NCBI GenBank assembly: GCA_036557525.1
Contig: DATBHH010000080.1
Span: 13,746-77,745 of the forward strand
Direction: 5' to 3'
DNA: 64,000 nt
DNA from: Solirubrobacterales bacterium
GTDB taxonomy: Bacteria > Actinomycetota > Thermoleophilia > Solirubrobacterales > 70-9
The notes below the pieces were generated by a model. It worked only from the letters and a program-made list of their open reading frames with translations. It was not told the origin of the DNA and did not search any database. The position numbers and the translations under genes are program-made. Numbering within the stretch: the stretch's first letter is position 1; each line of letters starts with the position of its first letter. Shown piece by piece: positions 36,334 to 54,003 of the stretch.

Positions 36334-36398
36334 CCGACTGTAGGCGCGACATCTTTCGATTCGATTACAGACGCCGTCGGTTAGATTCGCGGCTGACG

Positions 36399-38165: not shown

Positions 38166-39572
38166 ATGAATTCCTCGATCACGACACCGGACGCGAAGGA
38201 AGCACTCGGCGAGGTCGCGTTGACCGCTCCGTCAGACGTCGAAGCCATCGTCGCCGCGGCAAGCGACTCCCAGGGCCGGTGGCGTGAGCTGCCGGTCGCG
38301 GAGCGAGCGCGGATTCTCGACACCGCGGCGCGGGCGCTCGAGCCCGAGGCTCCGGAGCTCGGTCGGCTGCTGGCCGCCGAGTCGGGAAAGCCCCTGGCCC
38401 AGGCCGAATTCGAGATCGGTGGAGCGATCGCCCTTCTCCACGGGAACGCCGAGGAGGGTCGGAGGCTGGGCGGCCGAGTCCTTCCTACGGAGGGGAACCC
38501 GGGCACCGAGTGGGATCTGGCCTACACCAGGCGCGAGCCGCTCGGCGTCGTCGCGGCGATCCTCCCGTTCAACTTCCCGGTCGAGCTCTTCATCGAGAAG
38601 TGCGCCGCCGCGCTCGTGGCGGGGAACTCCGTCGTCGTCAAGCCGCCGCTCGAGGACCCGCTGACAGTCGAGAGACTGCGTCGGGCGCTGATCGACGCCG
38701 GGGTGCCGCCCGCCGCCGTCGCGGCCGTCAACGGCGGCGCCGACGTCGGCGCCGCTCTGGCGGGAGCAGCCGAGGTCGACGCCGTCTCGCTGACCGGTTC
38801 GACCGCCGCCGGAATCGCCGTCGCCGAAGCCGCGGCGCCGATCCTGCGCCCCCTCCATCTCGAGCTTGGGGGCAACAACGCGTGCCTGGTGCGGGCCGAT
38901 GCCGACCTCGACCTGGTCGCGAGCGAGGTGATCCGGGGCCGGCTGCTGATGAACGGTCAGGCCTGCGCGGCCAGCAAGCGGATCGTCGTCGACGCCTCGG
39001 TCCACGACGACCTTGCCGAGCGGCTCACCGCGGCGCTCGGCTCGCAGCGGGTCGGGCCCGCGACCGACCCGACGACGACCGTCGGGCCGCTGATCACGCC
39101 CACGGCCGCCGCCCGTGTCGAGTCCCAGATCTCGCGAGGGCGGAAGGAAGGCGCCGAGCTGGTCGCCGGGGAGGGGATCGCCGACGGACCCTACGTCGGG
39201 CCGACACTGCTCGGCTCGGTCCCGGCGAGTGCCGCGGTGGCCCGCGATGACGAGATCTTCGGGCCGGTCTTTGCGCTGATCCCGGTCGACAGTGACGAGG
39301 AGGCGCTGGCTGTCGCCAACGCGTCCTCCTTCGGGCTGATGGCCAGCGTCTTCTCGGCTGATGTCCGCCGCGCGGTGGCGATCGGCGAGCGGATCGAGGC
39401 GGGCGGGGTGGTGATCAACGGGACCGACAATTACCGGCCGCCGGTGATTCCGTTCGGGGGGGTCAAGCTGTCCGGGCTCGGGAGGGAGGGTCTGGGCTAC
39501 ACGATCGCCGAGCTATCGCGGGAGAAGACCTTCGTCCTGCGCCGCTTCCGGGCGCCCGGAGACGCCGGATGA
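38166..39572 (+). CDS. NAD(P)-dependent aldehyde dehydrogenase
   Basis: FNFPVEL, LELGGNNACLV (catalytic Glu), NGQACAASKRIVV (catalytic Cys), PFGGVKLSGLGREG. Confidence 0.85.
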   Translation: MNSSITTPDAKEALGEVALTAPSDVEAIVAAASDSQGRWRELPVAERARILDTAARALEPEAPELGRLLAAESGKPLAQAEFEIGGAIALLHGNAEEGRRLGGRVLPTEGNPGTEWDLAYTRREPLGVVAAILPFNFPVELFIEKCAAALVAGNSVVVKPPLEDPLTVERLRRALIDAGVPPAAVAAVNGGADVGAALAGAAEVDAVSLTGSTAAGIAVAEAAAPILRPLHLELGGNNACLVRADADLDLVASEVIRGRLLMNGQACAASKRIVVDASVHDDLAERLTAALGSQRVGPATDPTTTVGPLITPTAAARVESQISRGRKEGAELVAGEGIADGPYVGPTLLGSVPASAAVARDDEIFGPVFALIPVDSDEEALAVANASSFGLMASVFSADVRRAVAIGERIEAGGVVINGTDNYRPPVIPFGGVKLSGLGREGLGYTIAELSREKTFVLRRFRAPGDAG

Positions 39573-40354
39573 GTGGTTACCGGGTTCCCGCCGTCGTGTC
39601 CGCGATCCGCGTCCTCGGCCATCTCGACGCCCAGGGCGACGGCGGGGTGACCCAGTCCGAGCTCGTTGAGGCGCTCGGCGTCTCGAAGAGCACCATGCAC
39701 AACCTGGTCCGCACCCTGGAGTCGGAGGGCTTTGTCCGCCGCGACGCGAACACGCGGCGTTACTGCCTCGGCCCCGCACTGATCCCACTCGGCGCCGCGG
39801 CCCTGCGGCAGACCCAGCTCATCAGGCTCGCCTCCGACGCGGTCGCTCCGCTGGCCGCCCACCACGATCTCTCCTTCGCGGTTGCGCAACGCACCGCCGA
39901 CGATTTCGCACAGGTGGTCGAGCGCTTCTACCCCCCGCAGGACGTTCACGTGGGCATCACCCTCGGCAGCCGGTTCGGGATCTCCGAGGGGGCTCTGGGC
40001 AAGCTGCTGCTGGCCGCGATGGACGCCGATCAGGCCGAGCGCCTTCTCTCGGGGCGCAAGCTGCCCGCTCACACCGACCTCACGATCACCGACCCGGATG
40101 CCCTCCTGCGCGAGGTCGCCCGCGCCCGCGAGCGCGGCTGGGCGGTAAGCGCCCAGGAGCTGAACGAGAACAACGCGGTCGCGGCCTCGGTCTGGGGGCC
40201 GAGCGGCGACGTCGAGCTGTTCCTGATCAGTCTCGGCTTCCCCGCGCAGCTGGAGGAGGACCGCCTTGCCGAGATCGGAGAGATGCTCCGCGGAGTCGCC
40301 GACTCGGTGATGGAGGCGGCCGGCTCGACCCGCCCAGAGCCGACCCAGCCATGA
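39569..40354 (+). CDS. IclR family transcriptional regulator
   Basis: Winged HTH VTQSELVEALGVSKSTMHNLVRTLESEGFVRRD plus an effector domain. ATGA overlap with the ALDH stop. Confidence 0.85.
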   Translation: MSGYRVPAVVSAIRVLGHLDAQGDGGVTQSELVEALGVSKSTMHNLVRTLESEGFVRRDANTRRYCLGPALIPLGAAALRQTQLIRLASDAVAPLAAHHDLSFAVAQRTADDFAQVVERFYPPQDVHVGITLGSRFGISEGALGKLLLAAMDADQAERLLSGRKLPAHTDLTITDPDALLREVARARERGWAVSAQELNENNAVAASVWGPSGDVELFLISLGFPAQLEEDRLAEIGEMLRGVADSVMEAAGSTRPEPTQP

Positions 40355-41214
40355 GCGGCGCGCCGGAGTCGGTCAGGCTCGCGGTGATCCAGCCGCGGCC
40401 GGGCTCCGGCCCCGAGGAGCACAAGGTCGGGCGGGCGGTCGAGCTCCTCGAGCAGGCGGTGGCCGACGGCGCCCGGCTGGCCCTGTTTCCCGAGGGGTAC
40501 CCCGGCCCGCTGCGGGCCGCGAGCGAGTACGACGCGATGCCGGACCTCGCCGCCGCCGCGCGGTCCCTCGGCTGCGGGATCTGCTGGAGCAGGGTCGAGG
40601 CCGAGGAGGAAGGGAGGCACCGGATGGTGGCGTACCTGCACGACAGCTCGGGCGAGGTTCGGCTGCGCTACGAGCGAGCCCATCCCGCGACGGGGGACGT
40701 TCACCCCACCCTCTCCGGCGTTCCGATCCTTCCCGGCGACGATCTCAAGCCGGCCGAGGTGGATGGCGTCTCGGTCGGGGTCCTGATCTGCTCGGAGCTC
40801 TGGATTCCGGAGGCCGCGCGCGTGCTGGCGGTCGCCGGCGCCGAGCTGCTGCTCGCTCCTGCGGGCGGCGGCTTCCACGAGGTCGCGCCGAACTGGCGGC
40901 TGATCGCGCGGGCGCGGGCGGTCGAGAACGAGTGCCACGTCGGCCTCACCCAGCATCTGTTCGGCAAGGAGGAGGGCTCGGCCCTGATCGCCGGGCCGGA
41001 GGAGACGCTCGCGCGACTGATAGGGGAGGGAGTGGTCGTCGCCGACCTCGACCTCGACCGGGCTCGCTGGCTTCGCGCGACGGACGACTCGATGCGCGAG
41101 CCGAAGCCGTTCTCGTCGCTCCCGGGCCTGCTCCGGGCGCGCCGGCCGTGCCTTTACGGCGATCTCTCCAAGCCCGTTCCAGGGCTCTACGACTACTCCG
41201 ATCCTACGGCTTGA
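40351..41214 (+). CDS. carbon-nitrogen hydrolase (nitrilase superfamily; carbamoylase/amidase-like)
   Basis: LALFPEGY (Glu), VGVLICSELWIPE (Cys). Length about 287 aa. ATGA overlap upstream. Confidence 0.8.
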   Translation: MSGAPESVRLAVIQPRPGSGPEEHKVGRAVELLEQAVADGARLALFPEGYPGPLRAASEYDAMPDLAAAARSLGCGICWSRVEAEEEGRHRMVAYLHDSSGEVRLRYERAHPATGDVHPTLSGVPILPGDDLKPAEVDGVSVGVLICSELWIPEAARVLAVAGAELLLAPAGGGFHEVAPNWRLIARARAVENECHVGLTQHLFGKEEGSALIAGPEETLARLIGEGVVVADLDLDRARWLRATDDSMREPKPFSSLPGLLRARRPCLYGDLSKPVPGLYDYSDPTA

Positions 41215-41250
41215 CACGTTTTGAGCCGCTGGGATATAAAGACTCTCCCA

Positions 41251-41275
41251 CTGAACTACGTTCAGTCAGCTGAAC
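41251..41275. promoter_or_regulatory. candidate operator: three CTGAAC/GTTCAG half-sites
   Basis: CTGAAC-tac-GTTCAG-tcag-CTGAAC lies in the only sizeable gap (41215..41312) of the locus. It follows a GATATAAAG (-10-like) element and is about 25 nt upstream of the AAGGAG Shine-Dalgarno sequence. Confidence 0.4.
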
Positions 41276-41312
41276 AAGCGTACTCGCTACGCGGTGCCGG
41301 AAGGAGAATTTG

Positions 41313-42821
41313 ATGAGCGCAATCCACGAGCTGGTCGACCTGGCGATCACCGGCGGTACCGTCGTCTCCCCGAGCGGCTGTCGGAGAGTGGGGATCGCGA
41401 TCGACGGCGGGCGGGTCGTAGCCGTCGCCGAGGATCACCTGCTGCCGCCGGCGCGGGAGACCTACGACGCGAGCGGTCTCCACGTGATCCCGGGGCTCGT
41501 CGACACCGAGTCCCACCCCGGCTGCTACTCCCCGCTCAAGGACGACCTCGCCACCGAGTCCCGCGCGGCCGTCACCTCAGGGGTCACGACCTGGGGGGTG
41601 CACGCGCCCTCGACGCGGATGGGGCATCCAAACTTCGTCGACTTCGTCCAGCCCGATGACGTCGTCTCGTTCCACGACTCGTTCGAGCACTTCACCAACC
41701 TCACCGAGACCGACTCTGCGGTCGACATCTTCCTCACCTACATGGTCGAGACCGATCAACAGGCCAGGGAGATTCCCGAGTACGCCCGTGACCACGGTGT
41801 CACCTCCTACAAGCTCTACCTCCAGTCGATGAGCCCGGAGGCGGAGCCGCACTGGCCGGGCCGGCGCGCCGGGCTCGGCCACGGGTTCGACGACGGCACC
41901 TGCTGGCTGGTGATGGAGGCGGTCGCCGATCTCGGCTCCCCGGGCGTGGTCTGCATGCACTGCGAGAACTGGGAGATCGCGCGCATCTTCGACGAGCGGC
42001 TCCGCTCCGAAGGCCGTACCGACTGGGCGGCCTGGTCGGACCGCTCGCCGCACTTCCTCGAGTCGACCCACATCCGCACCTACGGCGACATGGCCGGGGA
42101 GCTCGATTGCCCGATCTACATTCAGCACGCGACCACGCCTGAGAGCTACCGCGAGATCCTCGAGCTGCGCGGCAGAGGCGTGACCTGTCACGCCCAGACC
42201 GGCCCGCACTGGCTGCACTTCGGCAAGGGCGAGCCGAACGCGTGGCGGATCAACGTCCCCCTTCGCTCGCGCGAGAACAATCCCAACATCTGGCGCGCCC
42301 TCCGCGACGACGTCATCAACTCGGTCGGCTCCGACCACGTCGTCTCCTGGAAGCCCTCCGACTACGAGAGCTCGTTCAACGAGAACCTCTGGGAGCTGAA
42401 GACCGGGTTCACGTCCCGGGTCGAGATGCTGTTGCCGGTCCTGCTCGAGGGCGTGCACGCGGAGAAACTCTCGCTCGAGCGGATGGTCGAGGTCGCCTGC
42501 GCCAACCCGGCGCGCATCTTTGGCCTCTACCCGCGCAAGGGCACCCTCGATATCGGTGCCGACGCCGACCTCGTCCTCGTCGACCTCGACAGGGTGGTCG
42601 AGGTCTCCAACGACCGGGTCCTGACCCGCTCGGGCTGGACGGTCCTCGACGGCCACACGATCCACGGGTGGAACGTCGCCACCTTCCTCCGCGGTAAGCA
42701 GATGTCGCGCTGGCAGGACGGCGCCCCCGGCCCTGAGTTCATCGGCGACGCCGACGGCGAATACCTGCGTCGGGTTCCTGGCCGCGACCTGGTGGAGCTC
42801 CAGGCTCCGCTGGAGGCGTGA
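41313..42821 (+). CDS. cyclic amidohydrolase (D-hydantoinase/dihydropyrimidinase-like)
   Basis: LAITGGTVVSP...VIPGLVDTESHPG, GVTSYKLYL (carboxylated-Lys position), CMHCEN, IQHATT, GSDHV. AAGGAG Shine-Dalgarno sequence 6 nt before ATG 41313. Confidence 0.8.
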   Translation: MSAIHELVDLAITGGTVVSPSGCRRVGIAIDGGRVVAVAEDHLLPPARETYDASGLHVIPGLVDTESHPGCYSPLKDDLATESRAAVTSGVTTWGVHAPSTRMGHPNFVDFVQPDDVVSFHDSFEHFTNLTETDSAVDIFLTYMVETDQQAREIPEYARDHGVTSYKLYLQSMSPEAEPHWPGRRAGLGHGFDDGTCWLVMEAVADLGSPGVVCMHCENWEIARIFDERLRSEGRTDWAAWSDRSPHFLESTHIRTYGDMAGELDCPIYIQHATTPESYREILELRGRGVTCHAQTGPHWLHFGKGEPNAWRINVPLRSRENNPNIWRALRDDVINSVGSDHVVSWKPSDYESSFNENLWELKTGFTSRVEMLLPVLLEGVHAEKLSLERMVEVACANPARIFGLYPRKGTLDIGADADLVLVDLDRVVEVSNDRVLTRSGWTVLDGHTIHGWNVATFLRGKQMSRWQDGAPGPEFIGDADGEYLRRVPGRDLVELQAPLEA

Positions 42822-43600
42822 TGGCGGTCTGGGACGACGTCCTCCCCGAGCAGGACCGGGCCGTCTACGAGGCGGCGGGGTGGGGCCGGGACGCCGGCTT
42901 CGGCAGCCGCCCGGTGCTGCTCGTCGTGGACGTCATCTACAACTTCGTCGGCGACCGGCCCGAGCCGATCCTCGATTCGATCCGGCGCTGGCGCTACAGC
43001 TGTGGCGAGCGCGGCTGGGAGGGGGTCGCCCACCTCCGCCGGCTTATTGCCGCCACGCGCGAGAAGGAGGTGCCGATCATCTACACGGGGATGGATCGGC
43101 GCCCCGACGGATTCGACCAGGGCTCATGGAACTGGAAGTCGAGCCGCTCCGCCGACGCGTCCGACATCGTCGGCTCCCTCGGCAACGAGATCGTCGCCGA
43201 GGTCGCCCCCGAGCCGCAGGACGTCTACTTCGTCAAGCGCAAGCCGAGCGCGTTCCTCGGCACGCCGCTGCTTGGCCACCTCGTCTACCTCGGCGCCGAC
43301 ACGGTGATCACGACCGGGACGACTACGAGCGGCTGCGTCCGGGCCACCGCCGTCGACGCCGCGCAGTACAACCTTCGCTCGGTCGTTCCCGAGGAGTGCG
43401 TCTGGGACCGGGGGGAGCTCACCCACAAGGTCAACCTCTTCGACATCCAGATGAAGTACGGCGACGTCAAGTCGACCGACGAGGTGATCTCCTACCTTCG
43501 CTCGCTGCCGCAGAGGCCGTGCGGGGAGACGACCCCGACCGGCATGCCCAACACCGACGAGAAGGTGCCGACCACGGTCGGGGACGGCCGTGAGGGCTGA
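42821..43600 (+). CDS. isochorismatase-family (cysteine) hydrolase
   Basis: PVLLVVDVIYNF (Asp), FVKRKPSAF (Lys), TGTTTSGCVRATAVDA (Cys). The start overlaps the upstream stop (GTG 42818 or ATG 42821). Confidence 0.8.
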   Translation: MAVWDDVLPEQDRAVYEAAGWGRDAGFGSRPVLLVVDVIYNFVGDRPEPILDSIRRWRYSCGERGWEGVAHLRRLIAATREKEVPIIYTGMDRRPDGFDQGSWNWKSSRSADASDIVGSLGNEIVAEVAPEPQDVYFVKRKPSAFLGTPLLGHLVYLGADTVITTGTTTSGCVRATAVDAAQYNLRSVVPEECVWDRGELTHKVNLFDIQMKYGDVKSTDEVISYLRSLPQRPCGETTPTGMPNTDEKVPTTVGDGREG

Positions 43601-43601
43601 G

Positions 43602-44183
43602 ATGAGCCTCTCGATCCGCAGGATCGTCGCCTTCGTCGACGAGGTGCGTTCCGAAGGCGGCCGCGAGGACGGGGAGCCGCTGCGGAAAGCCGCGGTCGCC
43701 GCGGTGTTCGCGAACCCTTACGCCGGCCGCGGCTACTCGGCCGACCTCTCGGAGCTGATCGAGCCGAGCGCCGAGCTCGGCACGCTGATCGGCGAGCGCT
43801 GCGCCACCGCCCTCGGGGCGCCGGTCGAGAGCCATGGCAAGGCGGTGATGGTCGGCACCGCCGGCGAGCAGGAGCATGGCAATGCGGTGAAGACGACCAC
43901 CTTCGGGAATCCCTTCCGGGAGGCGTTCGGCGGTGGCGCCGCATGGCTCCCCTCGACGACCAAGCGGTGTGCGCCGGGCGCCCAGATCGACGTACCCCTG
44001 TGCTTCAAGGACGAGATCTGGGTCCGCTCGCACTACGACACGATCACGATCTTCGTCCCGGACGCGCCGGCGCCCGACGAGATCGTGTTGATCGGGGCGG
44101 TCGCCTCGCGTGGCCGTCTCAACGCCCGCCTCGGCGGCAAGAGCAAGGAGGAGGCGCTTGCCGAACGAGGGGAGAGCGGTTGA
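43602..44183 (+). CDS. amino-acid-synthesis family protein (DUF1185-like)
   Basis: IRRIVAFVDEVRSEGGRE...KAAVAAVFANPYAGRGYSADLSELI...HGKAVMVGTAGEQEHG matches my recollection of this family. Not verified by search. Confidence 0.65.
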   Translation: MSLSIRRIVAFVDEVRSEGGREDGEPLRKAAVAAVFANPYAGRGYSADLSELIEPSAELGTLIGERCATALGAPVESHGKAVMVGTAGEQEHGNAVKTTTFGNPFREAFGGGAAWLPSTTKRCAPGAQIDVPLCFKDEIWVRSHYDTITIFVPDAPAPDEIVLIGAVASRGRLNARLGGKSKEEALAERGESG

Positions 44184-45343
44184 GCGAGCTCCTCGAGATC
44201 CGCAACCTCGGCGGCCTCTTCAGCGGGCGCCTCGGCGACGGGCTGCGCGACGTCGAGGCGATCCGAATCGAGGACGGGCGAATCGCGTCGTTCGACGCCG
44301 GCGAGGGCGCCGAGACGGTGATCGACGCGGGCGGCGCCATCGCCGTCCCCGGGCTGATCGACTCCCACGTCCACGTCGTCTTCGGCGACTGGACCCCGCG
44401 GCAGTCCGCCCTCGGGTGGATCGAGTCCTCGATGCACGGCGGGGTGACGATGATGATGTCCGCCTCCGAGGTCCACCTCCCCGGCCGACCGCGGGACCGC
44501 GAGGGGGTGAAGGCGCTGGCGGTCGCCGCCCAGCGGGCCTTCCGGGAGTTCCGGCCCGGCGGCGTCAAGGTCCTCGCCGGGTCGGTGATCATCGAGCCCA
44601 GCCTCGAGCCCTCCGACTTCGCCGAGCTCGCCGCTCACGGGGTCGGCCTCGCCAAGGTCGGGTTCGGCGACTTTCACCCTCAGGCCGACGCGGCGCCGCT
44701 CGTGCGCGCAGCCCAGGCGGCCGGCTTCGTGGTAATGAACCACACCGGCGGGGCGTCGATACCAGATTCCTCGCCGGTCACGATCGATGACGTTCTCGCC
44801 CTCGGCTGCGACATCATCGGCCATGCCAACGGGGGGACCACGGCGCTTCCCGACGCCGATCTGCCGCGGCTCTTCGAGGCGCCCGGCGCAATCCAGCTCG
44901 TGCAGGCGGGGAACCTCCGCTCCTCCCTGGCGATCCTCGAGATCGCCAGGGAGCGCGACGCGCTCGACCGGATCGTGCTTGCCACCGACACCCCGACCGG
45001 CACCGGGGTCATGCCACTCGGGATGGTCAAGACGGTCTGCGAGATCTCCTCGCTCGGGCGCATCCCGGCCGGGGACGCCGTCGCTCTGGCGACCGGCAAC
45101 AACGGCGCCGTCCTGCGCCGGGAGGAGGGCGTGCTGGAGCCCGGCCGGCCGGCCGACCTGTTCCTCTGCTTCGCGCCGCTCGGGTCAGCCTGGGAGGACC
45201 CGGTGGCGGCGATCGAGCACGGCGACATCCCCGGCATCGCCGCTGTCGTCATCGACGGCGGCCTGCGGGCGCTGAGGTCGCGAAACACCCCGGCGCCCGC
45301 CGGCGGATGCGCAATCGTCGAGGGGGCGGGGGTGGGGGCGTGA
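44180..45343 (+). CDS. amidohydrolase-superfamily enzyme (enamidase/imidazolonepropionase-like)
   Basis: The TTG at 44180 overlaps the upstream stop (TTGA). IAVPGLIDSHVHVVFGD (HxH). Body of ORF 43943..45343. Confidence 0.75.
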   Translation: MSELLEIRNLGGLFSGRLGDGLRDVEAIRIEDGRIASFDAGEGAETVIDAGGAIAVPGLIDSHVHVVFGDWTPRQSALGWIESSMHGGVTMMMSASEVHLPGRPRDREGVKALAVAAQRAFREFRPGGVKVLAGSVIIEPSLEPSDFAELAAHGVGLAKVGFGDFHPQADAAPLVRAAQAAGFVVMNHTGGASIPDSSPVTIDDVLALGCDIIGHANGGTTALPDADLPRLFEAPGAIQLVQAGNLRSSLAILEIARERDALDRIVLATDTPTGTGVMPLGMVKTVCEISSLGRIPAGDAVALATGNNGAVLRREEGVLEPGRPADLFLCFAPLGSAWEDPVAAIEHGDIPGIAAVVIDGGLRALRSRNTPAPAGGCAIVEGAGVGA

Positions 45344-46658: not shown

Positions 46659-47698
46659 ATGGATCGACGAAGAGGCCGCTGGCAACCGCGGCAGCCCTGC
46701 TTGCGGCGGCCGCGCTGAGCATCGGCGTTGCGGCATGCGGCGGCAGCGGAGAATCGACGACGGCCGAATCGAGCTCGGGCGGAGCGCTCAGCTCGATGAC
46801 CGACGCCACCCTGGTGCTCGACTTCATCCCGAACGGGGTTCACGCCGGCATCTACCGCGCGTTGGAAGAAGGCTATTACAGCGAAAACAACATCAACCTC
46901 AAGATCATCCAGCCGACGTCGACGGCCGACACCCTGAAACTGATCGACGCGGGCAAGGCGGACTTCGGGATCGCCGACGGGATCGATGTCGGCAACCAGA
47001 TCGTCGAAGGTCGCGACGCGAAGGGGGTCATGGCGCTGCTCGAGCATCCTCCCGGTGGGCTGATCACACTGAAAAAGAGCGGGATCACCGACCCCAAGGA
47101 ACTTGAAGGCGAAACGGTCGGGATCACCGGCGTGCCCTCCGACACTGCGATTCTCAACACGGTCGTCTCCGACGCCGGCGGCAACCCCGAAAACATCAAC
47201 GTCGTGACGATCGGGTTCAACGGGGTCCAGAACCTGGAAAACGAAAAGGTCGCGGCCTTCACCGGCTTCGTCCCGGCCGACGGCGTCCAGGTCGAACAGA
47301 ACGGCAACCCGATCGAATCGTTCCCGCTCGACGAATGGGGCGGGCCCAGCTATCCCGGGCTGGTCGTCTTCTCGACCCAGGAAAAGATCATGCAGGATCC
47401 GGCGTTGATGCAGGCGTTCGTCTCGGCGACCATCAAGGGGTACGAAGAAACCTTCAAAACCCCCGACAAGAGCATCGAAGACCTGGTCGACGCGAATCCG
47501 GGGATCAACGAAGAACTGGCGAAAGCGACGCTGAGCGCCTATATGCCGCTGTTCGAAGGAGAAGGTGAATACGGCGAATTCGAAACCAAGAACATCGAAG
47601 CGCTGTCCAAGTTCATGGTCGAAAACGAACTCGCGAAGTCGGGGTTCACGCCCGAACGCTACGGAACCAACGAGTTCGTCACCGGCGAAGAAGGGTGA
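46655..47698 (+). CDS. ABC transporter substrate-binding lipoprotein, NMT1/THI5-like (NitT/TauT family)
   Basis: Lipobox LSIGVAACGG. FIPNGVHAGIYRALEEGYY, GKADFGIA. Confidence 0.8.
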   Translation: MNGSTKRPLATAAALLAAAALSIGVAACGGSGESTTAESSSGGALSSMTDATLVLDFIPNGVHAGIYRALEEGYYSENNINLKIIQPTSTADTLKLIDAGKADFGIADGIDVGNQIVEGRDAKGVMALLEHPPGGLITLKKSGITDPKELEGETVGITGVPSDTAILNTVVSDAGGNPENINVVTIGFNGVQNLENEKVAAFTGFVPADGVQVEQNGNPIESFPLDEWGGPSYPGLVVFSTQEKIMQDPALMQAFVSATIKGYEETFKTPDKSIEDLVDANPGINEELAKATLSAYMPLFEGEGEYGEFETKNIEALSKFMVENELAKSGFTPERYGTNEFVTGEEG

Positions 47699-47719
47699 CG
47701 CGGGGTCGAGCGTGACCAG

Positions 47720-48301
47720 GTGAGCGGGACGGCTGCCAGGATCGAGCCCGGCGAGGCCGTGGCGATCGAGCTCGTCGAGGGAGAGGAGCTCGTCGTCACG
47801 GCTCCCGACGGCGGCCAGGGGGGCGACCTCTCCTTCGCCGGGTTCGACCAGGCCCTGACCCGCAACGCCAACGGCTGGGAGCGCTACGGCGAGCCCTGGC
47901 TCGTCCTCTGGGTCGAGGAGGGAATGCGACTGTTCGACGTCGACGCGGAGCCGGTGCTTGCGGTGGGGCCCAGCCGCGGTCCCGGCCATCTCGACGTCAC
48001 CTATCCGGGGTGCTGGAGTGAGATCTACGAGGACCGGCGCCTCGGGTGCCAGGACCTGATCTCGGCTGCGCTCGGGATCGAGCGACGCGAGCTGACCGGG
48101 ATGTTGTCGTTCTTCATGGACGGCGAGGTCGAGGGCGGCGTCTATCGGGGCTTCTCGCGCCCCGCGGTCGTCGAGGCCGGCGACTACGTGACCTTCAGCG
48201 CGCTGCGCCCGGTCGAGGTCGCCGTCAGCGCCTGCCCGGACGACGCCGTCAGCGGCTGGCGACCGGCGGCCCTGGAGATCGAGGTGCGCGACGATGGCTG
48301 A
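47720..48301 (+). CDS. DUF1989 family protein, copy 2 (divergent)
   Basis: RIEPGEAVAIELVEGEELVVTAPDGGQGGDLSFAGF has the same beta-barrel opening pattern as copy 1, and the length is similar. Confidence 0.6.
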   Translation: MSGTAARIEPGEAVAIELVEGEELVVTAPDGGQGGDLSFAGFDQALTRNANGWERYGEPWLVLWVEEGMRLFDVDAEPVLAVGPSRGPGHLDVTYPGCWSEIYEDRRLGCQDLISAALGIERRELTGMLSFFMDGEVEGGVYRGFSRPAVVEAGDYVTFSALRPVEVAVSACPDDAVSGWRPAALEIEVRDDG

Positions 48302-49118
48302 CGCCGGGGCCGGGATCGCGAACGGGTCGGTCCCGAAGCTGCGCGCAGAGGGCCTCTGCAAGACCTATCCGAGCGCCGGCGGTCCCGGCGACGTCGCCGC
48401 CCTCCGCGACGTCGAGTTCGAGGTCGGCGCCGGGGAGTTCGTCTCGATCGTCGGCCCCTCCGGCTGCGGCAAGTCGACGCTGTTCAGCATCATCGCCGGC
48501 CTGATCCGGCCGTCGGCGGGCAACGTCCTGCTCGACGGCAGCGAGCCGAAGCAGCTCCTGGGCGAGATCGGCTACATGCTCCAGCGCGATTTGCTGATGC
48601 CGTGGCGCACCGTCCTCGACAACACCACGGTCGGCCTCGAGTTGAACGGAGTATCGCGCCGGAAGGCCCGGCGTCGTGCGCTCGACGAGTTCGAGCGCTT
48701 CGGCCTGACCGGGTTCGAGCGCCACTGGCCGGCGAAGCTCTCGGGCGGGATGCGCCAGCGGGCCGCGCTTCTGCGGACCTTCCTCGCCGGTCGCCAGGTG
48801 ATGCTCCTCGACGAGCCGTTCGGGGCCCTCGACGCCCTGACGAGGCAGCGGATGCAGGAGTGGCTGCTCGACATCTGGCAGGAAGACAGCAAGACCATCG
48901 TCTTCGTCACCCACGACGTCGAGGAGGCCGTATTCCTGTCCGACCGGGTCCACGTGATGTCGGGAAGGCCCGGCCGGATAGTCCTCAGCCTCGAGGTCGA
49001 CCTGCCCCGGCCGCGCAATCCGCAGGTGACGATGACCGAGAAGTTCCTTGGCCTCAAGCAGCGCCTGATGGAACCACTGGAGGAGGCAATCGGGCCTCCG
49101 GGGAAGCGGGAGGCCTGA
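48294..49118 (+). CDS. ABC transporter ATP-binding protein (NitT/TauT type)
   Basis: Walker A GPSGCGKST, signature LSGGMRQR, Walker B MLLDEPFGALD. Confidence 0.9.
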   Translation: MADAGAGIANGSVPKLRAEGLCKTYPSAGGPGDVAALRDVEFEVGAGEFVSIVGPSGCGKSTLFSIIAGLIRPSAGNVLLDGSEPKQLLGEIGYMLQRDLLMPWRTVLDNTTVGLELNGVSRRKARRRALDEFERFGLTGFERHWPAKLSGGMRQRAALLRTFLAGRQVMLLDEPFGALDALTRQRMQEWLLDIWQEDSKTIVFVTHDVEEAVFLSDRVHVMSGRPGRIVLSLEVDLPRPRNPQVTMTEKFLGLKQRLMEPLEEAIGPPGKREA

Positions 49119-49993
49119 TGGCGACCGCGGGCTCGGTGATGGGGCTCGGCCGCAGAGCGAGGCCGCGCGGGCCCGCCTCGATCGGCCGCCGCCTGGGGCG
49201 CGCCGCAAAGGGGGCGCTGCCGCCGCTGGTGTTCGCCGCGATCGCCCTCGGGCTCTGGCAGCTCTACGCGACGGTGAGCGGCGTTTCCTCGGCGACGCTG
49301 CCGAAGCCGACCGAAATCGCCAAGGCGCTGGTCGAAGAACGGTCGCTCCTGCTCGAAAACGCCTGGGTGACGATCGAGGAGATACTGCTCGGGTTCGGGC
49401 TGGCGATCGTGGTCGGGATCATCCTCGCCGTGCTGATCCGCTCCTCGCGCATCATCGAACGCGCGATCTACCCCTGGCTGGTGGCATCGCAGATGGTCCC
49501 GATTCCGGCGATCGCACCGCTGATCGTCATCTGGACCGGCTTCGATCTGCGACCGAAGGTGATCGTGATAGCCCTCGTCTGCTTCTTCCCGATCACGGTC
49601 AACGCGATCGACGGCCTCAGGGCCGCCGACCCCGAGCTCCTCAACCTGCTGAAGACGCTGCGCGCCGGCCGCTGGCAGCGGTTCCGCAAGGCCCAGCTCC
49701 CGGCGGCGCTGCCGTTCATCTTCTCGGGCCTCAAGGTCGGCGCGGCCTTCAGCGTGATCGGCGCCGTCTTCGCCGAGTGGGTCGGCTCCTCCGAAGGGCT
49801 GGGCTACCTGATCCTGCTCCTCAACAACCAGACCGCGACGACCGCGATGTTCGCCGTGATCGTCGTCCTCGCCGCGATCGGGATCGGCCTTTTCCTCCTC
49901 GTCCGCCTTCTCGAGCACCTGGCGCTGCCCTGGTATTACGAGGGACGGGGCGAGGAGCCCGAGGGCCTCGGCATCGACACGGGCCAGTCGTGA
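49118..49993 (+). CDS. ABC transporter permease
   Basis: The ATG at 49118 overlaps the ATPase stop (TGATG). Six hydrophobic spans. EAA-like loop NAIDGLRAADPELLNLLKTLRA. Confidence 0.85.
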   Translation: MATAGSVMGLGRRARPRGPASIGRRLGRAAKGALPPLVFAAIALGLWQLYATVSGVSSATLPKPTEIAKALVEERSLLLENAWVTIEEILLGFGLAIVVGIILAVLIRSSRIIERAIYPWLVASQMVPIPAIAPLIVIWTGFDLRPKVIVIALVCFFPITVNAIDGLRAADPELLNLLKTLRAGRWQRFRKAQLPAALPFIFSGLKVGAAFSVIGAVFAEWVGSSEGLGYLILLLNNQTATTAMFAVIVVLAAIGIGLFLLVRLLEHLALPWYYEGRGEEPEGLGIDTGQS

Positions 49994-51405
49994 GCGGAAA
50001 GCCGGCCACCGTCGTCCGCGGCGCCTGGGCGCTGACCATGGACCCCGCGCTGGGCCCGGTCCGCGACGGTGCGGTCGCGATCGGCTCCGACGGCTCGATC
50101 CTCGACGTCGGCCCGGCCGAGGCGATCGTCGCCGCCGACCCCGAGGCCGAGGTGGTGGGCGACGGCAACGGGATCGTGCTTCCCGGCCTCGTCAATGCCC
50201 ACACCCACCTCAGCGAGTGCCTGATCGGCGGGATGGGCGAGACGGCGAACCTCTTCGAGTGGTTCGAGCGGGTCGTGAACCCGGCCGGGAGGGTGATCGA
50301 GCGTTCCGACATGAACGTCGGCACCCGGCTCAAGAGCATCGAGATGCTCCGTTCGGGGATCACGACGGTCAACGACATGACCTGCCACCGGAACCTCGGA
50401 GCCGAGGTCGCGCTCGGAGCCGTCGACGGCCTGGCGGCCATGGGCATGCGGGCGATCGTCAGCTTCGGGGCCGAGGACGCCTATCCCGGCGCCCCCCGGC
50501 CGGAGGCCTTCATGGCCGAGCACGAGGAGCTGGCGGACCGGATCTCCGACGAGCCGCTGATCGGGTTCCGGCTCGGGGTCGGCACCGTTCTCGGGATCAG
50601 CCCAGCCCTGTTCGAGATGACGGTCGAGGCCGGTCGCGAGCACGGATGGGGAGTGCACACCCATCTCGCCGAGGTCCGCGAGGAGCTAAGCGAGGCCAGG
50701 GTCCGCTACGGGCACGGGACGATTGAGGAGGCGGACCGGGTCGGGATGCTCGAGCTCGAGGTGATCGCCGGCCACTGCATCTGGTGCGGCGAGCGGGACA
50801 TCGGCCTGCTTGCGAGCCGCGACGTCGCGGTCGCCCACAACCCGGTCGCGAACATGATCCTCGCCTCGGGGATCTGCCCCGTCCCCCGCCTCCTGCGCGA
50901 GGGGGTCGCGGTCGGCCTCGGGACCGACGGGGCCGCCTCGAACGACAACCAGGACATGTTCGGAGTCCTGAAGTGCGCGGCACTGCTGCAGAAGGTCGGT
51001 GCCCTCGACGCCGCAGCGATGACGGCGCCGGCGGTGCTGGAGATGGCGACGGCCGGCGGTGCACGCGCGCTCGGCCTCGAGGGGTCAATCGGCAGCCTCA
51101 GCCCCGGCAAGCGGGGCGACATCGTCCTCCTCGACGGCAACACGCCCGAGCTCGCTGCGATCCACGACCCCTTCCAGCAGGTCGTCTACTGCGCGACGGC
51201 CCGGTGCGTCTCCGACGTCTGGGTCGACGGGACACGTCGGTTGCGCGGCGGCGAGGTGATCGGTGCGGACCTGCGGGCGCTGAGCGGCGAGGCGCGCGAG
51301 GCCGCGGTCGCGCTGGCGAAGCGCGCCGGTCTCGGCGCGGAGTCCGTCTACGCCGGGCCAGGGAGGCTGACGGAGTCCGAGGCGATCCTTGAGCGAATCG
51401 GTTGA
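49990..51405 (+). CDS. amidohydrolase-superfamily deaminase/chlorohydrolase-like enzyme (SsnA/TrzA/guanine-deaminase group)
   Basis: GTGA overlap upstream. LPGLVNAHTHLSE (HxH), HTHLAEVREE, GTDGAASN. Confidence 0.8.
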   Translation: MSGKPATVVRGAWALTMDPALGPVRDGAVAIGSDGSILDVGPAEAIVAADPEAEVVGDGNGIVLPGLVNAHTHLSECLIGGMGETANLFEWFERVVNPAGRVIERSDMNVGTRLKSIEMLRSGITTVNDMTCHRNLGAEVALGAVDGLAAMGMRAIVSFGAEDAYPGAPRPEAFMAEHEELADRISDEPLIGFRLGVGTVLGISPALFEMTVEAGREHGWGVHTHLAEVREELSEARVRYGHGTIEEADRVGMLELEVIAGHCIWCGERDIGLLASRDVAVAHNPVANMILASGICPVPRLLREGVAVGLGTDGAASNDNQDMFGVLKCAALLQKVGALDAAAMTAPAVLEMATAGGARALGLEGSIGSLSPGKRGDIVLLDGNTPELAAIHDPFQQVVYCATARCVSDVWVDGTRRLRGGEVIGADLRALSGEAREAAVALAKRAGLGAESVYAGPGRLTESEAILERIG

Positions 51406-53026
51406 CGTCTGCCTGATCGGCGGCGGGCACAACGGGCTCGCCTGCGCCTGCTACCTGGCCCGCGCCGGCCTCGACGTCCTCGTCGTCGAGTCGGCCCGCG
51501 AGCCGGGGGGGTGCATCGCGACGGTGGAGCTGCCGGACGGTCGCGGCCGGCTCGAGCTCGGCGCCTACGAGCACGGGGGGATCCGCGCCAGCGGGGTGGT
51601 CGCCGACCTCGAGTTGGAGAGCCGCCACGGGCTGCGGTTCCACGAGCGCCGGGAGCTGACCCTCTCGCCCTGCGACGACGGCACCCAGCTGGCCTTCTGG
51701 AGCTCGCTCGAGCGGACCGTCGAGGCGCTCGGAGGCGTGGTCGGGCCCGCCGATGCCGAGGCATACCGCCGGTTCGCGGTTTGGGCCGACGCGGCGACGG
51801 GAGTCTTGAGCCAGGCCGACGGGGGCCCGCCGCCGACCCTGCGGCAGCTCGCTGCGCTGGCCGAGGCGGCTCTCGGCCGCGAGGGAGAGCGCCTGATCCA
51901 AGCCTTCCTCGCTCCGGCCAGCTCACTCGTCGCCGGCATCTTCGAGGACGGGCGCCTGCGCGGCGCGCTCGCGCACTGGGCGGCGCATTCTCAGCTCCCC
52001 CCACAGATGCCAGGCACGGGGGCCGGCGCGCTTTTCCTCGCCGCCGCCCACGGCTCGTCGGCGATCCGGCCGCATGGCGGGTCGCGGGGGACCGTGGACG
52101 CGCTGGTCAGCTGCCTCGAGGCGGCCGGCGGCAGGCTGCGCTGCTCGGCGCCGGCCGAAGCGATTGAGGTCTCCGGCGGGCGGGCCCGGGCGGTGGTCGC
52201 CGGCGGCGAGCGGATCGAGGCGCGCCGCGCGGTCGTCTCCGCGATCGACGCGCGTCGGGTGTTCCTCGGGCTGATCGACCCCGATGCCGTGCCTGCGCCC
52301 CTTCTGGCCGAGGTCGAGCGCATCCACGGCACCCAGCACAACGTCTCCGAGCTGAAGGTGGACGCGATCCTCTCGAGGTTGCCCGCGATCCCCGGCCCGG
52401 CGGGGTTCGAGCGCGCGTTCATGCTCTCCGCCAATCGGGGGACGGACATCGCCTCCGCCTTCGCCAGCATCTCCCTCGGCGAGCTCCCCGAGCGACCGCC
52501 GGTCATGATTGCGTTCCCCTCGACCCTCGAGCAGGGATGGGCCCCCGACGGCGGCGAGGTGGCCTGGATCTCGACCTTCGTCCCCTGGAGGCTCCGGGGG
52601 GGCGATTGGGGGTCCGGGAGCCTGGAGCGCGCAGCCGACCTCGCCTGGGGGACGGTCGAGCGGGCGCTGGGCTCCGAGCTCGCGGCGACCGAGAGGGTCA
52701 TCACCGGACCCGACGAGTGGGTCGCTCGCCACGGAAACGCGGGCGCCAACCCGAACCACATCGAGATGAGCATCGACCAGCTGATGGCGCTGCGCCCCTC
52801 GCCCGCGCTGGCCGGGTACCGGACGCCCGTTGCGGGGCTGTTTCTGACCGGCGCCGGGACGCACCCGGGAGGTGGGGTCACCGGTATGCCGGGCCGCAAC
52901 GCGGCGGCCGTCGTCCTCGCCGATCTCGGCATCTCGCGCCGAACCCGCGGCGCCCGAATTCGTGCCCAGATCGGCGTCCTGCGCGACGCTGCCCGTGCGG
53001 CCCGCGCCCTGCGGAGGGCCGCATGA
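51389..53026 (+). CDS. FAD/NAD(P)-dependent oxidoreductase, phytoene-desaturase (CrtI)-like
   Basis: VCLIGGGHNGLACACYLARAGLDVLVVESAREPGGC. C-terminal GLFLTGAGTHPGGGVTG. Confidence 0.8.
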   Translation: MSESVDVCLIGGGHNGLACACYLARAGLDVLVVESAREPGGCIATVELPDGRGRLELGAYEHGGIRASGVVADLELESRHGLRFHERRELTLSPCDDGTQLAFWSSLERTVEALGGVVGPADAEAYRRFAVWADAATGVLSQADGGPPPTLRQLAALAEAALGREGERLIQAFLAPASSLVAGIFEDGRLRGALAHWAAHSQLPPQMPGTGAGALFLAAAHGSSAIRPHGGSRGTVDALVSCLEAAGGRLRCSAPAEAIEVSGGRARAVVAGGERIEARRAVVSAIDARRVFLGLIDPDAVPAPLLAEVERIHGTQHNVSELKVDAILSRLPAIPGPAGFERAFMLSANRGTDIASAFASISLGELPERPPVMIAFPSTLEQGWAPDGGEVAWISTFVPWRLRGGDWGSGSLERAADLAWGTVERALGSELAATERVITGPDEWVARHGNAGANPNHIEMSIDQLMALRPSPALAGYRTPVAGLFLTGAGTHPGGGVTGMPGRNAAAVVLADLGISRRTRGARIRAQIGVLRDAARAARALRRAA

Positions 53027-54003
53027 CGGACTCCCCGGGCCCGCTGGAGTTGCTCGAGCCGATCACCGCCTATCAGCGCTCGGCGCTGATAGCAGCTGCG
53101 GTCGAGACCGGGATCGCCGACGCCCTCGCGCCCGCGCCCCGGCAGGTCGACGCGGTCGCAAGGGCCTGCGGCACCGACCGCCGCGGCACCCAGGCCCTCC
53201 TCTCGGGGCTGTCCGCGATCGGGATCGCCGAGAGGGGGAGAGATGGGTTTCGGCTGACCGCCCTGGGAGCCCCACTCGCAACCGACCACCCTCAGAGCAT
53301 CGCTTCGATAGTCCGGAAGGAGTGGTTCTTCTACCGAGCCTGGGCCGAGCTGCCCGGCGCGGTGCGCGATGGCCACGCCCGCATCGCGCCGTGGCGCGAG
53401 CGCCTCGCGGAGGATCCGGAGACCTCGTTGGAGTTCCTGCGCGCCCTCGACGACCTCGCTCGGCTCGGCGGTGGGGAGCTGCCCTCCCTGGCGGGACCGT
53501 GCCAGGGCAGCTTGCTCGACGTCGGCGGTGGGGCCGGTTCGCACTCGGCGGCGCTGGTGGAGGCGAATCCGGGACTGGCCGCAACGGTCCTCGACCTCCC
53601 CGCGGTCGAGCCGCTCGTCGCCGAGCGCAACCCGGGGGTCGGGTTCGTCGGCGGCGACCTCGAATCGGAGCGGTTCGGGATGCCGGAGGGCGAGCGCTGG
53701 GACGCTGTTCTCCTCGCCAACATCCTCCACGACCACCCGCCCGAGCGCTGCGCCCGCTACGTGCGCGAGGCCGTGAGCCTGCTTGGGCCGGGTGGGAGCC
53801 TGATCGTCTACGAGTGGGTGATCGACCCCGATCGAGACGCTCCCCCCGCCGTTGCCCTCTTCACTCCGATGATGCTGGTCGAGAACGAGGGCGGCTTCAC
53901 CTGGACAGACGCGGAGATCGCCTCGTGGATTCGCGAAACGGGGCTCGTCCCGGAGCCGGTTCGGCGTGGGCAGGGACCGATCGCCGTGATCAGGGCGACC
54001 TGA
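53023..54003 (+). CDS. SAM-dependent O-methyltransferase (family 2, with N-terminal dimerisation/winged-helix domain)
   Basis: ATGA overlap upstream. SAM motif LLDVGGGAGSHS. LLANILHDH. Confidence 0.8.
   Translation: MTDSPGPLELLEPITAYQRSALIAAAVETGIADALAPAPRQVDAVARACGTDRRGTQALLSGLSAIGIAERGRDGFRLTALGAPLATDHPQSIASIVRKEWFFYRAWAELPGAVRDGHARIAPWRERLAEDPETSLEFLRALDDLARLGGGELPSLAGPCQGSLLDVGGGAGSHSAALVEANPGLAATVLDLPAVEPLVAERNPGVGFVGGDLESERFGMPEGERWDAVLLANILHDHPPERCARYVREAVSLLGPGGSLIVYEWVIDPDRDAPPAVALFTPMMLVENEGGFTWTDAEIASWIRETGLVPEPVRRGQGPIAVIRAT

Follow-up and report, generated by a model that had tools for sequence, protein, structure and literature searches.

Our study reports on a locus of 16 genes in a 64,000-nucleotide (nt) stretch of DNA (positions 13,746 to 77,745 of contig DATBHH010000080.1, assembly GCA_036557525.1; hereafter the window) from a Solirubrobacterales bacterium. 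The open reading frames (ORFs) lie between positions 38166 and 54003 of the + strand, are co-directional and tightly packed in DNA of about 70% G+C, and encode families which suggest, as the most likely function of the locus, the uptake of a nitrogen-containing ring compound and the hydrolytic breaking of its ring or rings (Table 1). Starts were picked by the coupling of stop and start codons, and that of the enamidase homologue also by N-terminal alignment with its homologues. Of the 15 junctions, 12 are stop/start overlaps (five of the type ATGA, two GTGA, one TTGA, two 1-nt overlaps TGATG, one of 8 nt and one of 17 nt), and the other three are gaps of 1 nt (43600/43602), 21 nt (47698/47720) and 98 nt (41215-41312). 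A preliminary description of the locus, made from the sequence letters, had already listed the 16 co-directional genes and the three gaps, which our ORF analysis bears out; it counted eleven overlaps, one fewer than the twelve found here. Annotation of each gene with hidden Markov models matched every one of its family assignments to Pfam. None of the 16 proteins reaches an NCBIfam equivalog cut-off, and thus the families are right but the specific function is not given by curated models. The enzymes that it had listed as missing are also missing here: no biotin carboxylase, allophanate hydrolase or dihydropyrimidine dehydrogenase, and no urea carboxylase either, was found among the 16 genes or the scanned flanking ORFs of the window.

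Table 1. Features of the heterocycle-catabolic locus in the window, and ArcS-C1-like genes of related loci (positions in the latter refer to the locus named).
Feature	Position	Strand	Assignment	Status
Aldehyde dehydrogenase (ALDH)	38166..39572	+	PF00171, 438 bits	accessory
IclR-family regulator	39569..40354	+	HTH_IclR + IclR_C	accessory
Nitrilase-superfamily CN_hydrolase	40351..41214	+	PF00795, 79 bits	accessory
Promoter-like TTGACA-18 nt-TATAAA	41211..41240	+	read from sequence	
Operator-like element TGAAC-N3-GTTCA-N6-TGAAC	41250..41275	+	sequence and comparison across loci	
Hydantoinase/dihydropyrimidinase-like cyclic amidohydrolase	41313..42821	+	Amidohydro_1	core
Isochorismatase-fold amidase	42821..43600	+	PF00857	core
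DUF1185/AA_synth protein	43602..44183	+	PF06684, 221 bits	core
Enamidase homologue	44180..45343	+	Amidohydro; PDB 2VUN, E = 2.9e-91	core
DUF1989 protein a	45340..45933	+	PF09347, 148 bits	core, kept in all full clusters
Class II aldolase-fold protein	45930..46658	+	PF00596	core
NMT1/ThiY-type lipoprotein, binding protein of ABC importer	46655..47698	+	PF09084, 174 bits	accessory
DUF1989 protein b	47720..48301	+	PF09347, 39.5 bits	accessory; divergent, lineage-specific
ABC ATPase, taurine/nitrate/sulfonate-type	48294..49118	+	PF00005; TauB/SsuB-type NCBIfam matches below cut-off	accessory
ABC permease	49118..49993	+	PF00528	accessory
TRZ/ATZ (COG0402) amidohydrolase	49990..51405	+	PF01979, 186 bits	core
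CrtO/CrtI-like FAD enzyme	51389..53026	+	NAD_binding_8 + Amino_oxidase	core in this cluster type
Methyltransf_2 SAM enzyme with dimerisation domain	53023..54003	+	PF00891 + PF08100	core in this cluster type
ArcS-C1-like gene, L004	6032-6991			
ArcS-C1-like gene, L007	2725-3666			
ArcS-C1-like gene, L014	11857-12891			
ArcS-C1-like gene, L084	10001-10960			
ArcS-C1-like gene, L086	10001-10963			

The cluster recurs well beyond the genome in which it was found. Among the loci that we compared (numbered with the prefix L), the same gene order is present on two long contigs (L001 and L002) and in three Solirubrobacterales genomes (L003-L005). A 2.6-Mb contig of a metagenome-assembled genome (MAG; L086) carries the same core at 67-82% protein identity, with 49% for the aldolase-fold protein. 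In two Acidimicrobiia (L011 and L014) the set is rearranged, most of its proteins are 40-60% identical to those of the window (the binding protein and the methyltransferase are lower), and an ArgD-like aminotransferase gene is inserted before the TRZ/ATZ gene. These comparisons delineate a first core block consisting of the hydantoinase-like, isochorismatase-fold, DUF1185, enamidase-homologous, DUF1989a and class II aldolase-fold proteins, and a second, belonging to this cluster type, made up of the TRZ/ATZ amidohydrolase, the CrtI-like flavoenzyme and the methyltransferase. The CN_hydrolase, the IclR regulator, the ALDH, the NMT1-type ATP-binding cassette (ABC) system (missing in L014 and L086) and DUF1989b are accessory. 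A gene order that recurs in other genomes at 50-90% protein identity is beyond chance, and the retention of synteny in two classes at about 50% identity argues strongly for a single functional unit; we regard it as highly probable that the whole locus serves the catabolism of one N-heterocycle as a single unit. The survey of gene neighbourhoods that the preliminary description had suggested thus finds the cluster in two actinobacterial classes. Its statement that the gene combination matches no known pathway also stands, as no characterised orthologous cluster was found in the searchable literature (the enzyme families of a xanthinase cluster of 2023 lay outside the comparison). The cluster is most likely a hydrolytic N-heterocycle catabolic operon; it matches no characterised pathway found, and several of its enzymes have no assigned reaction.

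Two of the core enzymes are candidates for ring opening. The hydantoinase-like protein has its best PDB matches in L-hydantoinase 1GKR (156 bits) and D-hydantoinase 1NFG (147 bits), and is 75-85% identical to its orthologues in Solirubrobacterales and 50-52% to those in Acidimicrobiia. Its metal motif reads E-x-H (VDTESHPG, near residue 64), with Glu replacing the first His of H-x-H; the orthologues in Thermoleophilia and Acidimicrobiia retain both this motif and the Lys, His, His and Asp ligands. In the loci compared, the hydantoinase-like gene is always followed by that for the isochorismatase-fold protein, in which the Asp-Lys-Cys motifs can be recognized by eye. The latter matches 4L07 and an N-carbamoylsarcosine amidohydrolase at 119 bits each, followed by 1NBA (94 bits) and 3OT4/3UAO (78 bits); we take 4L07 and 3UAO to be maleamate amidases. 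A tblastn search for plasmid relatives of the hydantoinase-like protein gave sequences of only about 30% identity, and the isochorismatase gene adjacent to the one in Hydrogenophaga is not clearly related. The nitrilase-family protein, for which the preliminary description had cited the precedent of carbamoylases acting with hydantoinases, is accessory: it is absent from L002, L005, L011 and L014, and in its motif LRYERAHP, as in all five orthologues, Arg stands at the expected catalytic Lys, with the L003 protein also having Val for the catalytic Glu. Its best PDB match is Nit2/omega-amidase (42 bits), and its sequence would fit either a variant enzyme or one that is decaying.

The second candidate, the enamidase homologue, is a full-length match to the Eubacterium barkeri enamidase (2VUN), with the H-x-H motif intact. 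It has many relatives at 76-100% identity, several of them assigned to Solirubrobacterales MAGs, and belongs to a small family (176 clusters at 50% identity below 1e-30). A genome scan with an 11-sequence alignment of enamidases gave 80 loci from many phyla, which together with L001 and L002 make 82. DUF1185 adjoins the enamidase homologue in 51 of the 82, at times as two tandem copies, and a CoxL-type molybdenum hydroxylase does so in 23. In 21 of the loci, the gene order is enamidase homologue, Fe-S protein (about 500 residues with two 4Fe-4S motifs), ApbE-like protein (about 280 residues, named by eye from its GGDIA motif) and DUF1185; the Fe-S and ApbE-like groups match no Pfam family and were considered as shadow ORFs, and proved to be real proteins. 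The preliminary description was right to call the window protein enamidase-like, but in counting it as one more amidohydrolase it missed that this is a strong homologue of 2VUN embedded in a module with DUF1185, which in many loci forms part of a nicotinate/cyclic-enamide cluster. We propose that the DUF1185 protein helps to hydrolyse the enamine freed by the ring opening of the enamidase, because its fold, that of Bacillus chorismate mutase, is also common to RidA-type enamine/imine deaminases. Two DUF1185 structures with this fold (2QTP and 3BYQ) have been described, their function being not known (PMC2954203).

In a neighbor-joining tree the enamidase homologue of the window falls into a second major clade of the family, without the Fe-S reductase, in which the neighbouring genes are varied and include HpaB-type monooxygenases, TctC, molybdenum hydroxylases or the full cluster of the window type. 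Its closest relatives outside Solirubrobacterales lie beside a CoxL-type molybdenum hydroxylase (L006, 74% identity), beside CoxM and CoxL subunits and XdhC (L008, 69%), and in the order CN_hydrolase, deacetylase-like, ArcS-C1-like, enamidase homologue, ALDH (L007, 74%). In Alphaproteobacteria and Rokubacteria, an HpaB-type flavin monooxygenase gene, often with DUF1185, directly precedes that of the enamidase homologue (L038 and L031 (Bradyrhizobium sp.) at about 8486-11125, and L015, L035, L025 and L033). The amidohydrolase KpiC, 28% identical to enamidase, has been reported to be a ring-cleaving dioxygenase (PMC7356986), and thus members of this enamidase clade need not all be hydrolases.

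The second core block begins with the TRZ/ATZ protein, which retains the HxH, HxxE and D motifs, is 52% identical in Acidimicrobiia and has the methylthioadenosine/S-adenosylhomocysteine deaminase 4F0R as its best PDB match. It scores 305 against a cut-off of 540 for PRK09045 and 180 against 455 for the SsnA model TIGR03314, and we propose that it is a deaminase or an SsnA-like ring hydrolase. The gene overlaps by 17 nt with that of the flavin adenine dinucleotide (FAD) enzyme, which recurs in L011, L014, L087 and L088. The flavoenzyme scores 259 against a cut-off of 1000 for the CrtO model and matches 4DGK at 42 bits; we propose that it carries out a ring reduction or oxidation coupled to the TRZ/ATZ enzyme. 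The last gene encodes an S-adenosylmethionine (SAM)-dependent methyltransferase with the SAM motif LLDVGGGAG; in L001-L005, L014 and L087 it comes after the gene of the FAD enzyme, to which it is also close in L088.

The remaining genes would supply the uptake and the smaller conversions. The binding protein has a signal peptide with the lipobox ...GVAAC and matches 4NMY (107 bits), for which a ligand was looked for and none found, and the formylaminopyrimidine-binding ThiY 3IX1 (99 bits). The best PDB matches of DUF1989a are 3ORU and the DUF1989 domain of trimethylamine N-oxide demethylase, which are nearer to it than the CgdAB-type models (95 against a cut-off of 285 for UAAP2, and 57 against 206); we propose that it is a C-N hydrolase or deiminase. 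DUF1989b is found only in the window and L003, and matches no UAAP model. For the class II aldolase-fold protein, the best NCBIfam model is 3,4-dihydroxyphthalate decarboxylase (64 bits, below the cut-off) and the best PDB match is not a sugar-phosphate aldolase but Mlr6791 (2Z7B), which we take to be the pyridine-dicarboxylate decarboxylase of vitamin B6 degradation; we propose that the protein decarboxylates a (hetero)aromatic acid. The ALDH lies below every NCBIfam cut-off, with omega-oxo-acid semialdehyde dehydrogenases as its best matches, and has orthologues of 65-70% identity in L001-L003, L005 and L007 and of 54% in L011; it is absent from L004, L014 and L086.

The 98-nt gap upstream of the hydantoinase-like gene holds a promoter-like pair of hexamers, the first of which (TTGACA, 41211-41216) overlaps the stop codon of the CN_hydrolase gene. 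A consensus promoter scan called no promoter in the gap, the -10 hexamer ending in A, and a terminator scan gave terminator-like sites at chance level only; a TTGACA plus TAnnnT-type element is also present upstream of the orthologous gene in L003 and L086. Downstream of the hexamers lies the palindrome ACTGAAC-TAC-GTTCAGT (41250-41266), followed by a third half-site, CTGAAC (41270-41275). The preliminary description had noted a palindromic operator-like element in this, the only real gap of the locus; the 17-nt palindrome is unique, with one match in the window against 0.05 expected by chance. The three half-sites recur with identical spacing upstream of the orthologous hydantoinase-like gene in L001, L003, L004 and L086; in L002 and L005 the core GAAC-N3-GTTC and the spacing are retained and the first half-site reads AGAAC, and Conexibacter has the operator in degenerate form. 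The gene for the IclR regulator, coupled to that of the ALDH by an ATGA overlap, has orthologues in L001-L003, L005 and L086, and the Acidimicrobiia clusters (L011 and L014) have neither this gene nor the operator. The pattern of half-sites fits an IclR operator, and the IclR protein is presumed to act on it as a repressor or activator. We propose from this layout that the locus comprises two transcription units, ALDH-IclR-CN_hydrolase and then 13 genes behind an internal promoter and operator. No riboswitch or other regulatory RNA, including those for guanidine and thiamine pyrophosphate (TPP), was matched by Rfam at E <= 1 between positions 37000 and 55000.

Clusters in which the orthologous core is joined to other genes bear on the nature of the substrate. 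In L004 a different set stands in place of the ALDH and IclR genes: a PnrA/Bmp binding protein, a two-domain ABC ATPase, two BPD_transp_2 permeases, a CN_hydrolase, a deacetylase-like protein and a protein of 319 residues, all coupled to the same downstream core. This last protein and its homologues in L007 and L014 have the exact motif PC-X3-KPY-X2-S-X2-H, described as the catalytic hallmark of the archaeosine synthase C1 domain, which acts on the nitrile of 7-cyano-7-deazaguanine. The ArcS-C1-like proteins match the DUF5591 and ArcS models weakly and form a small family of 192 hits. In Conexibacter woesei DSM 14684 (L084) the order is ABC system, Peripla_BP_4, A_deaminase (PF00962), hydantoinase-like (75% identity to the window), isochorismatase-fold (80%), a second COG0402 amidohydrolase, CN_hydrolase, ArcS-C1-like and ALDH; L086 shares these upper genes and has the entire lower core after them. 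The A_deaminase gene is accompanied in both L084 and L086 by an ABC system of the ribose/nucleoside type. A PnrA/Bmp-type ABC system is found in L087 and L089 as well as in L004, in both cases with CN_hydrolase and ArcS-C1-like genes and in L087 after the FAD-methyltransferase pair. The L088 locus, from Chloroflexota, has aminotransferases, an old yellow enzyme (OYE)-type reductase, a methyltransferase, NicX and a CrtI-like flavoenzyme beside the ArcS-C1-like gene. Stand-alone ArcS-C1-like proteins of about 320 residues occur in catabolic clusters and are annotated only as hypothetical or DUF5591. One of them, in a Nitrospinota MAG (L085, 1959-12586), lies with a molybdenum hydroxylase, a UbiD decarboxylase, AllF/AllG homologues and a PrpD-like protein, in another uncharacterised heteroaromatic-acid cluster. 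The varied contexts indicate that the lower core combines with different 'upper' modules, several of them with purine or nucleoside signatures (A_deaminase, and transporters of the Bmp and ribose types) and one with that of a pyridine (NicX). The A_deaminase gene, the nucleoside-type transporters and the ArcS-C1-like genes of these variants speak for a purine-like compound over a simple ureide.

From this analysis, we tentatively favour, without calling it probable, the stepwise hydrolysis of a purine-like fused pyrimidine of the guanine/xanthine, 7-deazaguanine or pterin type, with two ring openings; a bicyclic substrate is suggested because two ring-opening enzymes, the hydantoinase-like protein and the enamidase homologue, are in the conserved core. 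We infer every step of the corresponding scheme. The compound would be taken up via the ThiY-like ABC system and broken down without oxygenases or molybdenum hydroxylases. The TRZ/ATZ amidohydrolase would deaminate the ring or, with the adjacent flavoenzyme, attack a reduced ring in the manner of YgfK and SsnA, after which the hydantoinase-like enzyme would open the pyrimidine ring, as the first of the two ring openings. The isochorismatase-fold amidase would hydrolyse the resulting linear ureido acid or amide, with carbon leaving as CO2 together with NH3; the class II aldolase-fold enzyme would decarboxylate the amino-heteroaryl carboxylate; and DUF1989 would hydrolyse the remaining exocyclic amidine or amine. 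The opening of the second ring (a lactam or cyclic enamide) would then fall to the enamidase homologue, with the help of DUF1185, and would yield NH3 and an aldehyde or amidine, and the carbon skeleton would enter central metabolism via the ALDH. For 7-deazaguanine the balance of the eight conserved enzymes would close to succinate, 2 CO2 and 4 NH3, and an equivalent order of steps can be written for guanine or a pterin. The more specific claim, that this is an undescribed, purely hydrolytic and decarboxylative route by which aerobic Actinomycetota mineralise guanine-like fused pyrimidines (as candidates, 7-deazaguanines including preQ0 and preQ1, pterins or purines) without a molybdenum hydroxylase, uricase or oxygenase, is speculative and, in our judgement, doubtful.

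The scheme has partial counterparts among characterised pathways. In the reductive uric acid pathway, a flavoreductase and the COG0402 hydrolase SsnA open the six-membered ring, HyuA then opens the five-membered ring, and ureido groups are hydrolysed (PMC12507026). The cluster resembles this 2,8-dioxopurine pathway of E. coli and Clostridia in its flavoenzyme with a COG0402 amidohydrolase, in the opening of the other ring that a hydantoinase-family enzyme would carry out, in the hydrolysis of ureido groups that would follow, and in that the steps after the redox reaction would all be hydrolytic. It differs in that XdhD, YgfK/UacX, YgeW, YgeY and YgeX are not in the cluster, and in that it adds the enamidase homologue, DUF1185, DUF1989, the class II aldolase-fold protein and the methyltransferase. 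HyuA belongs to the dihydropyrimidinase/D-hydantoinase model TIGR02033, for which the hydantoinase-like protein scores 184 against a cut-off of 393; likewise, the TRZ/ATZ protein shares only its superfamily with SsnA. The xanthinase pathway of clostridia hydrolyses xanthine between its atoms 1 and 6, and the resulting ureido-imidazole carboxylate is converted to formiminoglycine. The later steps are summarised as hydrolytic and decarboxylative, with glycine as the end product (PMC12507026). The chemical logic that we propose is the same: hydrolysis of the pyrimidine ring, ureido hydrolysis, decarboxylation, deamination and hydrolysis of the second ring. The hosts differ, the window cluster coming from aerobic Actinomycetota. 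Xanthinase genes were reported for Clostridia and Bacilli by Tong et al. in 2023, and the full list of xanthinase steps reportedly goes back to the work of Rabinowitz.

Several observations weigh against a fused pyrimidine. The equivalog cut-offs are reached by none of the 16 proteins, the shortfalls of the TRZ/ATZ protein on the SsnA model and of the hydantoinase-like protein on TIGR02033 are large, and the E-x-H metal motif of the latter is unusual. The flavoenzyme is CrtI-like and not related to YgfK or PydA, and the methyltransferase has no place in the scheme. The window itself holds no A_deaminase, Bmp transporter or ArcS-C1-like gene, one of the ArcS-C1-like contexts (L088) includes a NicX-type pyridine dioxygenase, and the relatives of the enamidase homologue are best known from the catabolism of a pyridine, nicotinate.

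This last point leads to a rival explanation, the nicotinate-like catabolism of a pyridine or pyridone without a molybdenum hydroxylase. The TRZ/ATZ enzyme would here make a 6-oxo-pyridine by hydrolytic substitution, the flavoenzyme would reduce it to a tetrahydro-oxo-pyridine, and the enamidase homologue and DUF1185 would release a formyl acid and NH3, with the last steps left to the ALDH, the decarboxylase-like aldolase and the amidases. The tetrahydro-6-oxonicotinate (THON) branch of nicotinate degradation, known from Eubacterium barkeri, Azorhizobium caulinodans and Bradyrhizobiaceae strain SG-6C, shares with the cluster an enamidase homologue with adjacent DUF1185, and the TRZ/ATZ-like enzyme Cch2 is a precedent for feeding that branch, by converting 6-chloronicotinate to 6-hydroxynicotinate. 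The strength of the match to 2VUN, the 21-23 loci in which enamidase relatives are paired with CoxLMS-type molybdenum hydroxylases, the Fe-S protein and DUF1185, and the molybdenum-hydroxylase genes beside the nearest relatives in L006 and L008 are all in keeping with a pyridine, as are the resemblance of the isochorismatase-fold protein to the presumed maleamate amidases, that of the aldolase-fold protein to Mlr6791, and NicX in one related context. However, a nicotinate dehydrogenase, an Fe-S 6-hydroxynicotinate reductase and an ApbE-like protein were not found among the 16 genes and scanned flanks, and the window enamidase homologue belongs to the other clade of its family, that without the Fe-S reductase. 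The cluster also adds DUF1989, aldolase-fold genes and the hydantoinase-like enzyme with its constant isochorismatase-fold partner, for which pair this explanation has no role; the binding protein is ThiY-like and not of the Liv type found in nicotinate-type clusters, and the A_deaminase gene and nucleoside-type transporters of variants with the orthologous core are left unexplained. We consider a pyridine substrate unlikely.

The ureide/guanidino-type ring of the preliminary description is the second rival explanation. What stands of that proposal is the uptake and hydrolytic opening of an N-heterocycle by one conserved, co-regulated locus; that the ring is of the ureide/guanidino type is not established. 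A monocyclic ureide, amidine or guanidine-type ring (a dihydropyrimidine, hydantoin, creatinine, the thiamine pyrimidines hydroxymethylpyrimidine (HMP) and formylaminopyrimidine, or isocytosine) would be opened by a hydantoinase/carbamoylase-type pair, and DUF1989 would hydrolyse an amidine or guanidine fragment. Such a ring is suggested by the hydantoinases as best matches of the ring amidohydrolase, by the similarity of the binding protein to ThiY, a binder of 2-methyl-4-aminopyrimidine, and by the established ability of TRZ-type enzymes to deaminate cytosine-like rings. The hydantoinase/carbamoylase and reductive pyrimidine (Pyd) pathways likewise place an amidase, for the removal of a carbamoyl or amide group, after a cyclic amidohydrolase of the dihydropyrimidinase/hydantoinase family; the window protein belongs to that family by its match to 1GKR, but falls well short of the TIGR02033 cut-off and has E-x-H as its metal motif. 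Unlike in those systems, the conserved partner has an isochorismatase fold in place of a nitrilase-family or M20 carbamoylase, and the dihydropyrimidine dehydrogenase PydA was not found among the 16 genes or the scanned flanks. The matches of the isochorismatase-fold protein to N-carbamoylsarcosine amidohydrolases, enzymes of the creatinine pathway, are a further point for such a ring (94-119 bits, the top score being equal to that of another isochorismatase-family hydrolase, 4L07); neither an ATP-dependent N-methylhydantoinase nor a sarcosine oxidase is among the 16 genes. For the Rut pathway, the RutB model gives the isochorismatase-fold protein 33 against a cut-off of 378, and there is no RutA-type protein among the 16. 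DUF1989 is shared with the guanidine/urea carboxylase system, in which CgdAB is a carboxyguanidine deiminase of this family, the precedent cited in the preliminary description. Against this link stand the absence of a urea carboxylase, an allophanate hydrolase and a guanidine or TPP riboswitch, the weak UAAP matches of DUF1989a, far below the cut-offs of CgdAB-type models, and the restriction of DUF1989b to two loci. Nor is the CN_hydrolase conserved; a single ring would not need a second ring-opening enzyme, and yet the enamidase-DUF1185 pair is core; and variant clusters contain purine-type genes. A monocyclic substrate of this kind is in our view improbable.

It is very unlikely that two or more unrelated functions merely abut here, such as a ring-hydrolase operon and a carotenoid-type CrtO/CrtF pair: the last two genes do resemble CrtO and CrtF/BchU models and L086 has the hydrolase core without the FAD and methyltransferase genes, but the scores fall well short of the CrtO and CrtF cut-offs, the genes are joined by overlaps of 17 nt and 4 nt, the TRZ-FAD(-methyltransferase) genes stay with the core in Acidimicrobiia, and the FAD-methyltransferase pair lies beside other heterocycle-catabolic genes in L087 and L088.

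Whatever its substrate, the cluster comprises nine conserved enzymes of which none reaches a curated functional model and two, DUF1185 and this branch of DUF1989, are still domains of unknown function. It is common in Solirubrobacterales contigs and kept in Acidimicrobiia; both groups are Actinomycetota that abound in soil, and little is known of their nitrogen metabolism. Solving it would provide a new hydrolytic route for N-heterocycles, would explain the 'conserved proteins of unknown function' that have been noted in nicotinate clusters since 2012, and would show whether the pairing of a flavoenzyme with a COG0402 hydrolase serves generally to open aromatic nitrogen-containing rings. Should the undescribed route for guanine-like fused pyrimidines prove correct, three families would receive their first biochemical roles: DUF1185/AA_synth would be the enamine-hydrolysing partner of enamidase-type enzymes, DUF1989 proteins other than CgdAB would be heteroaryl-amine or amidine hydrolases, and the stand-alone bacterial ArcS-C1-like proteins would be processors of side-chain nitriles or amidines. 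A variant of the cluster is present in a cultured relative, Conexibacter woesei DSM 14684 (CP001854.1, 4,611,669-4,632,628), which makes the question directly testable.

The locus is flanked on its 5' side by an aminotransferase gene on the + strand (36399-37754) and an extracytoplasmic function (ECF)-type sigma-70 gene on the opposite strand (35674-36435), and on its 3' side, beyond 54003, by genes for a DUF7144 protein and a phosphoenolpyruvate (PEP)-mutase-family protein on the opposite strand. The aminotransferase was considered as a member of the cluster and rejected: it belongs to the PRK07046 subfamily, unlike the ArgD-like enzyme of the Acidimicrobiia clusters, and is not conserved beside the cluster. 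Neither the sigma factor gene nor a flavin amine oxidase gene further upstream (32426-33643 on the - strand; PF01593, 212 bits) has a link to the cluster in other genomes. Elsewhere in the window, an ORF encoding 1142 residues (20940-24368, +) has a strong coding signal (G+C at third codon positions, GC3, of 0.90) and no Pfam family at E <= 1e-4, and further long ORFs with coding-like composition and no Pfam match lie at 59388-61244 (-), 61100-62521 (-), 55266-56894 (-) and 10912-12309 (+). Rfam places three tRNA genes at 1401-1489 (-), 5373-5461 (+) and 10710-10783 (+), and the G+C content falls to 0.65-0.68 at about 10-20 kb of the window, compared with 0.70-0.74 elsewhere.

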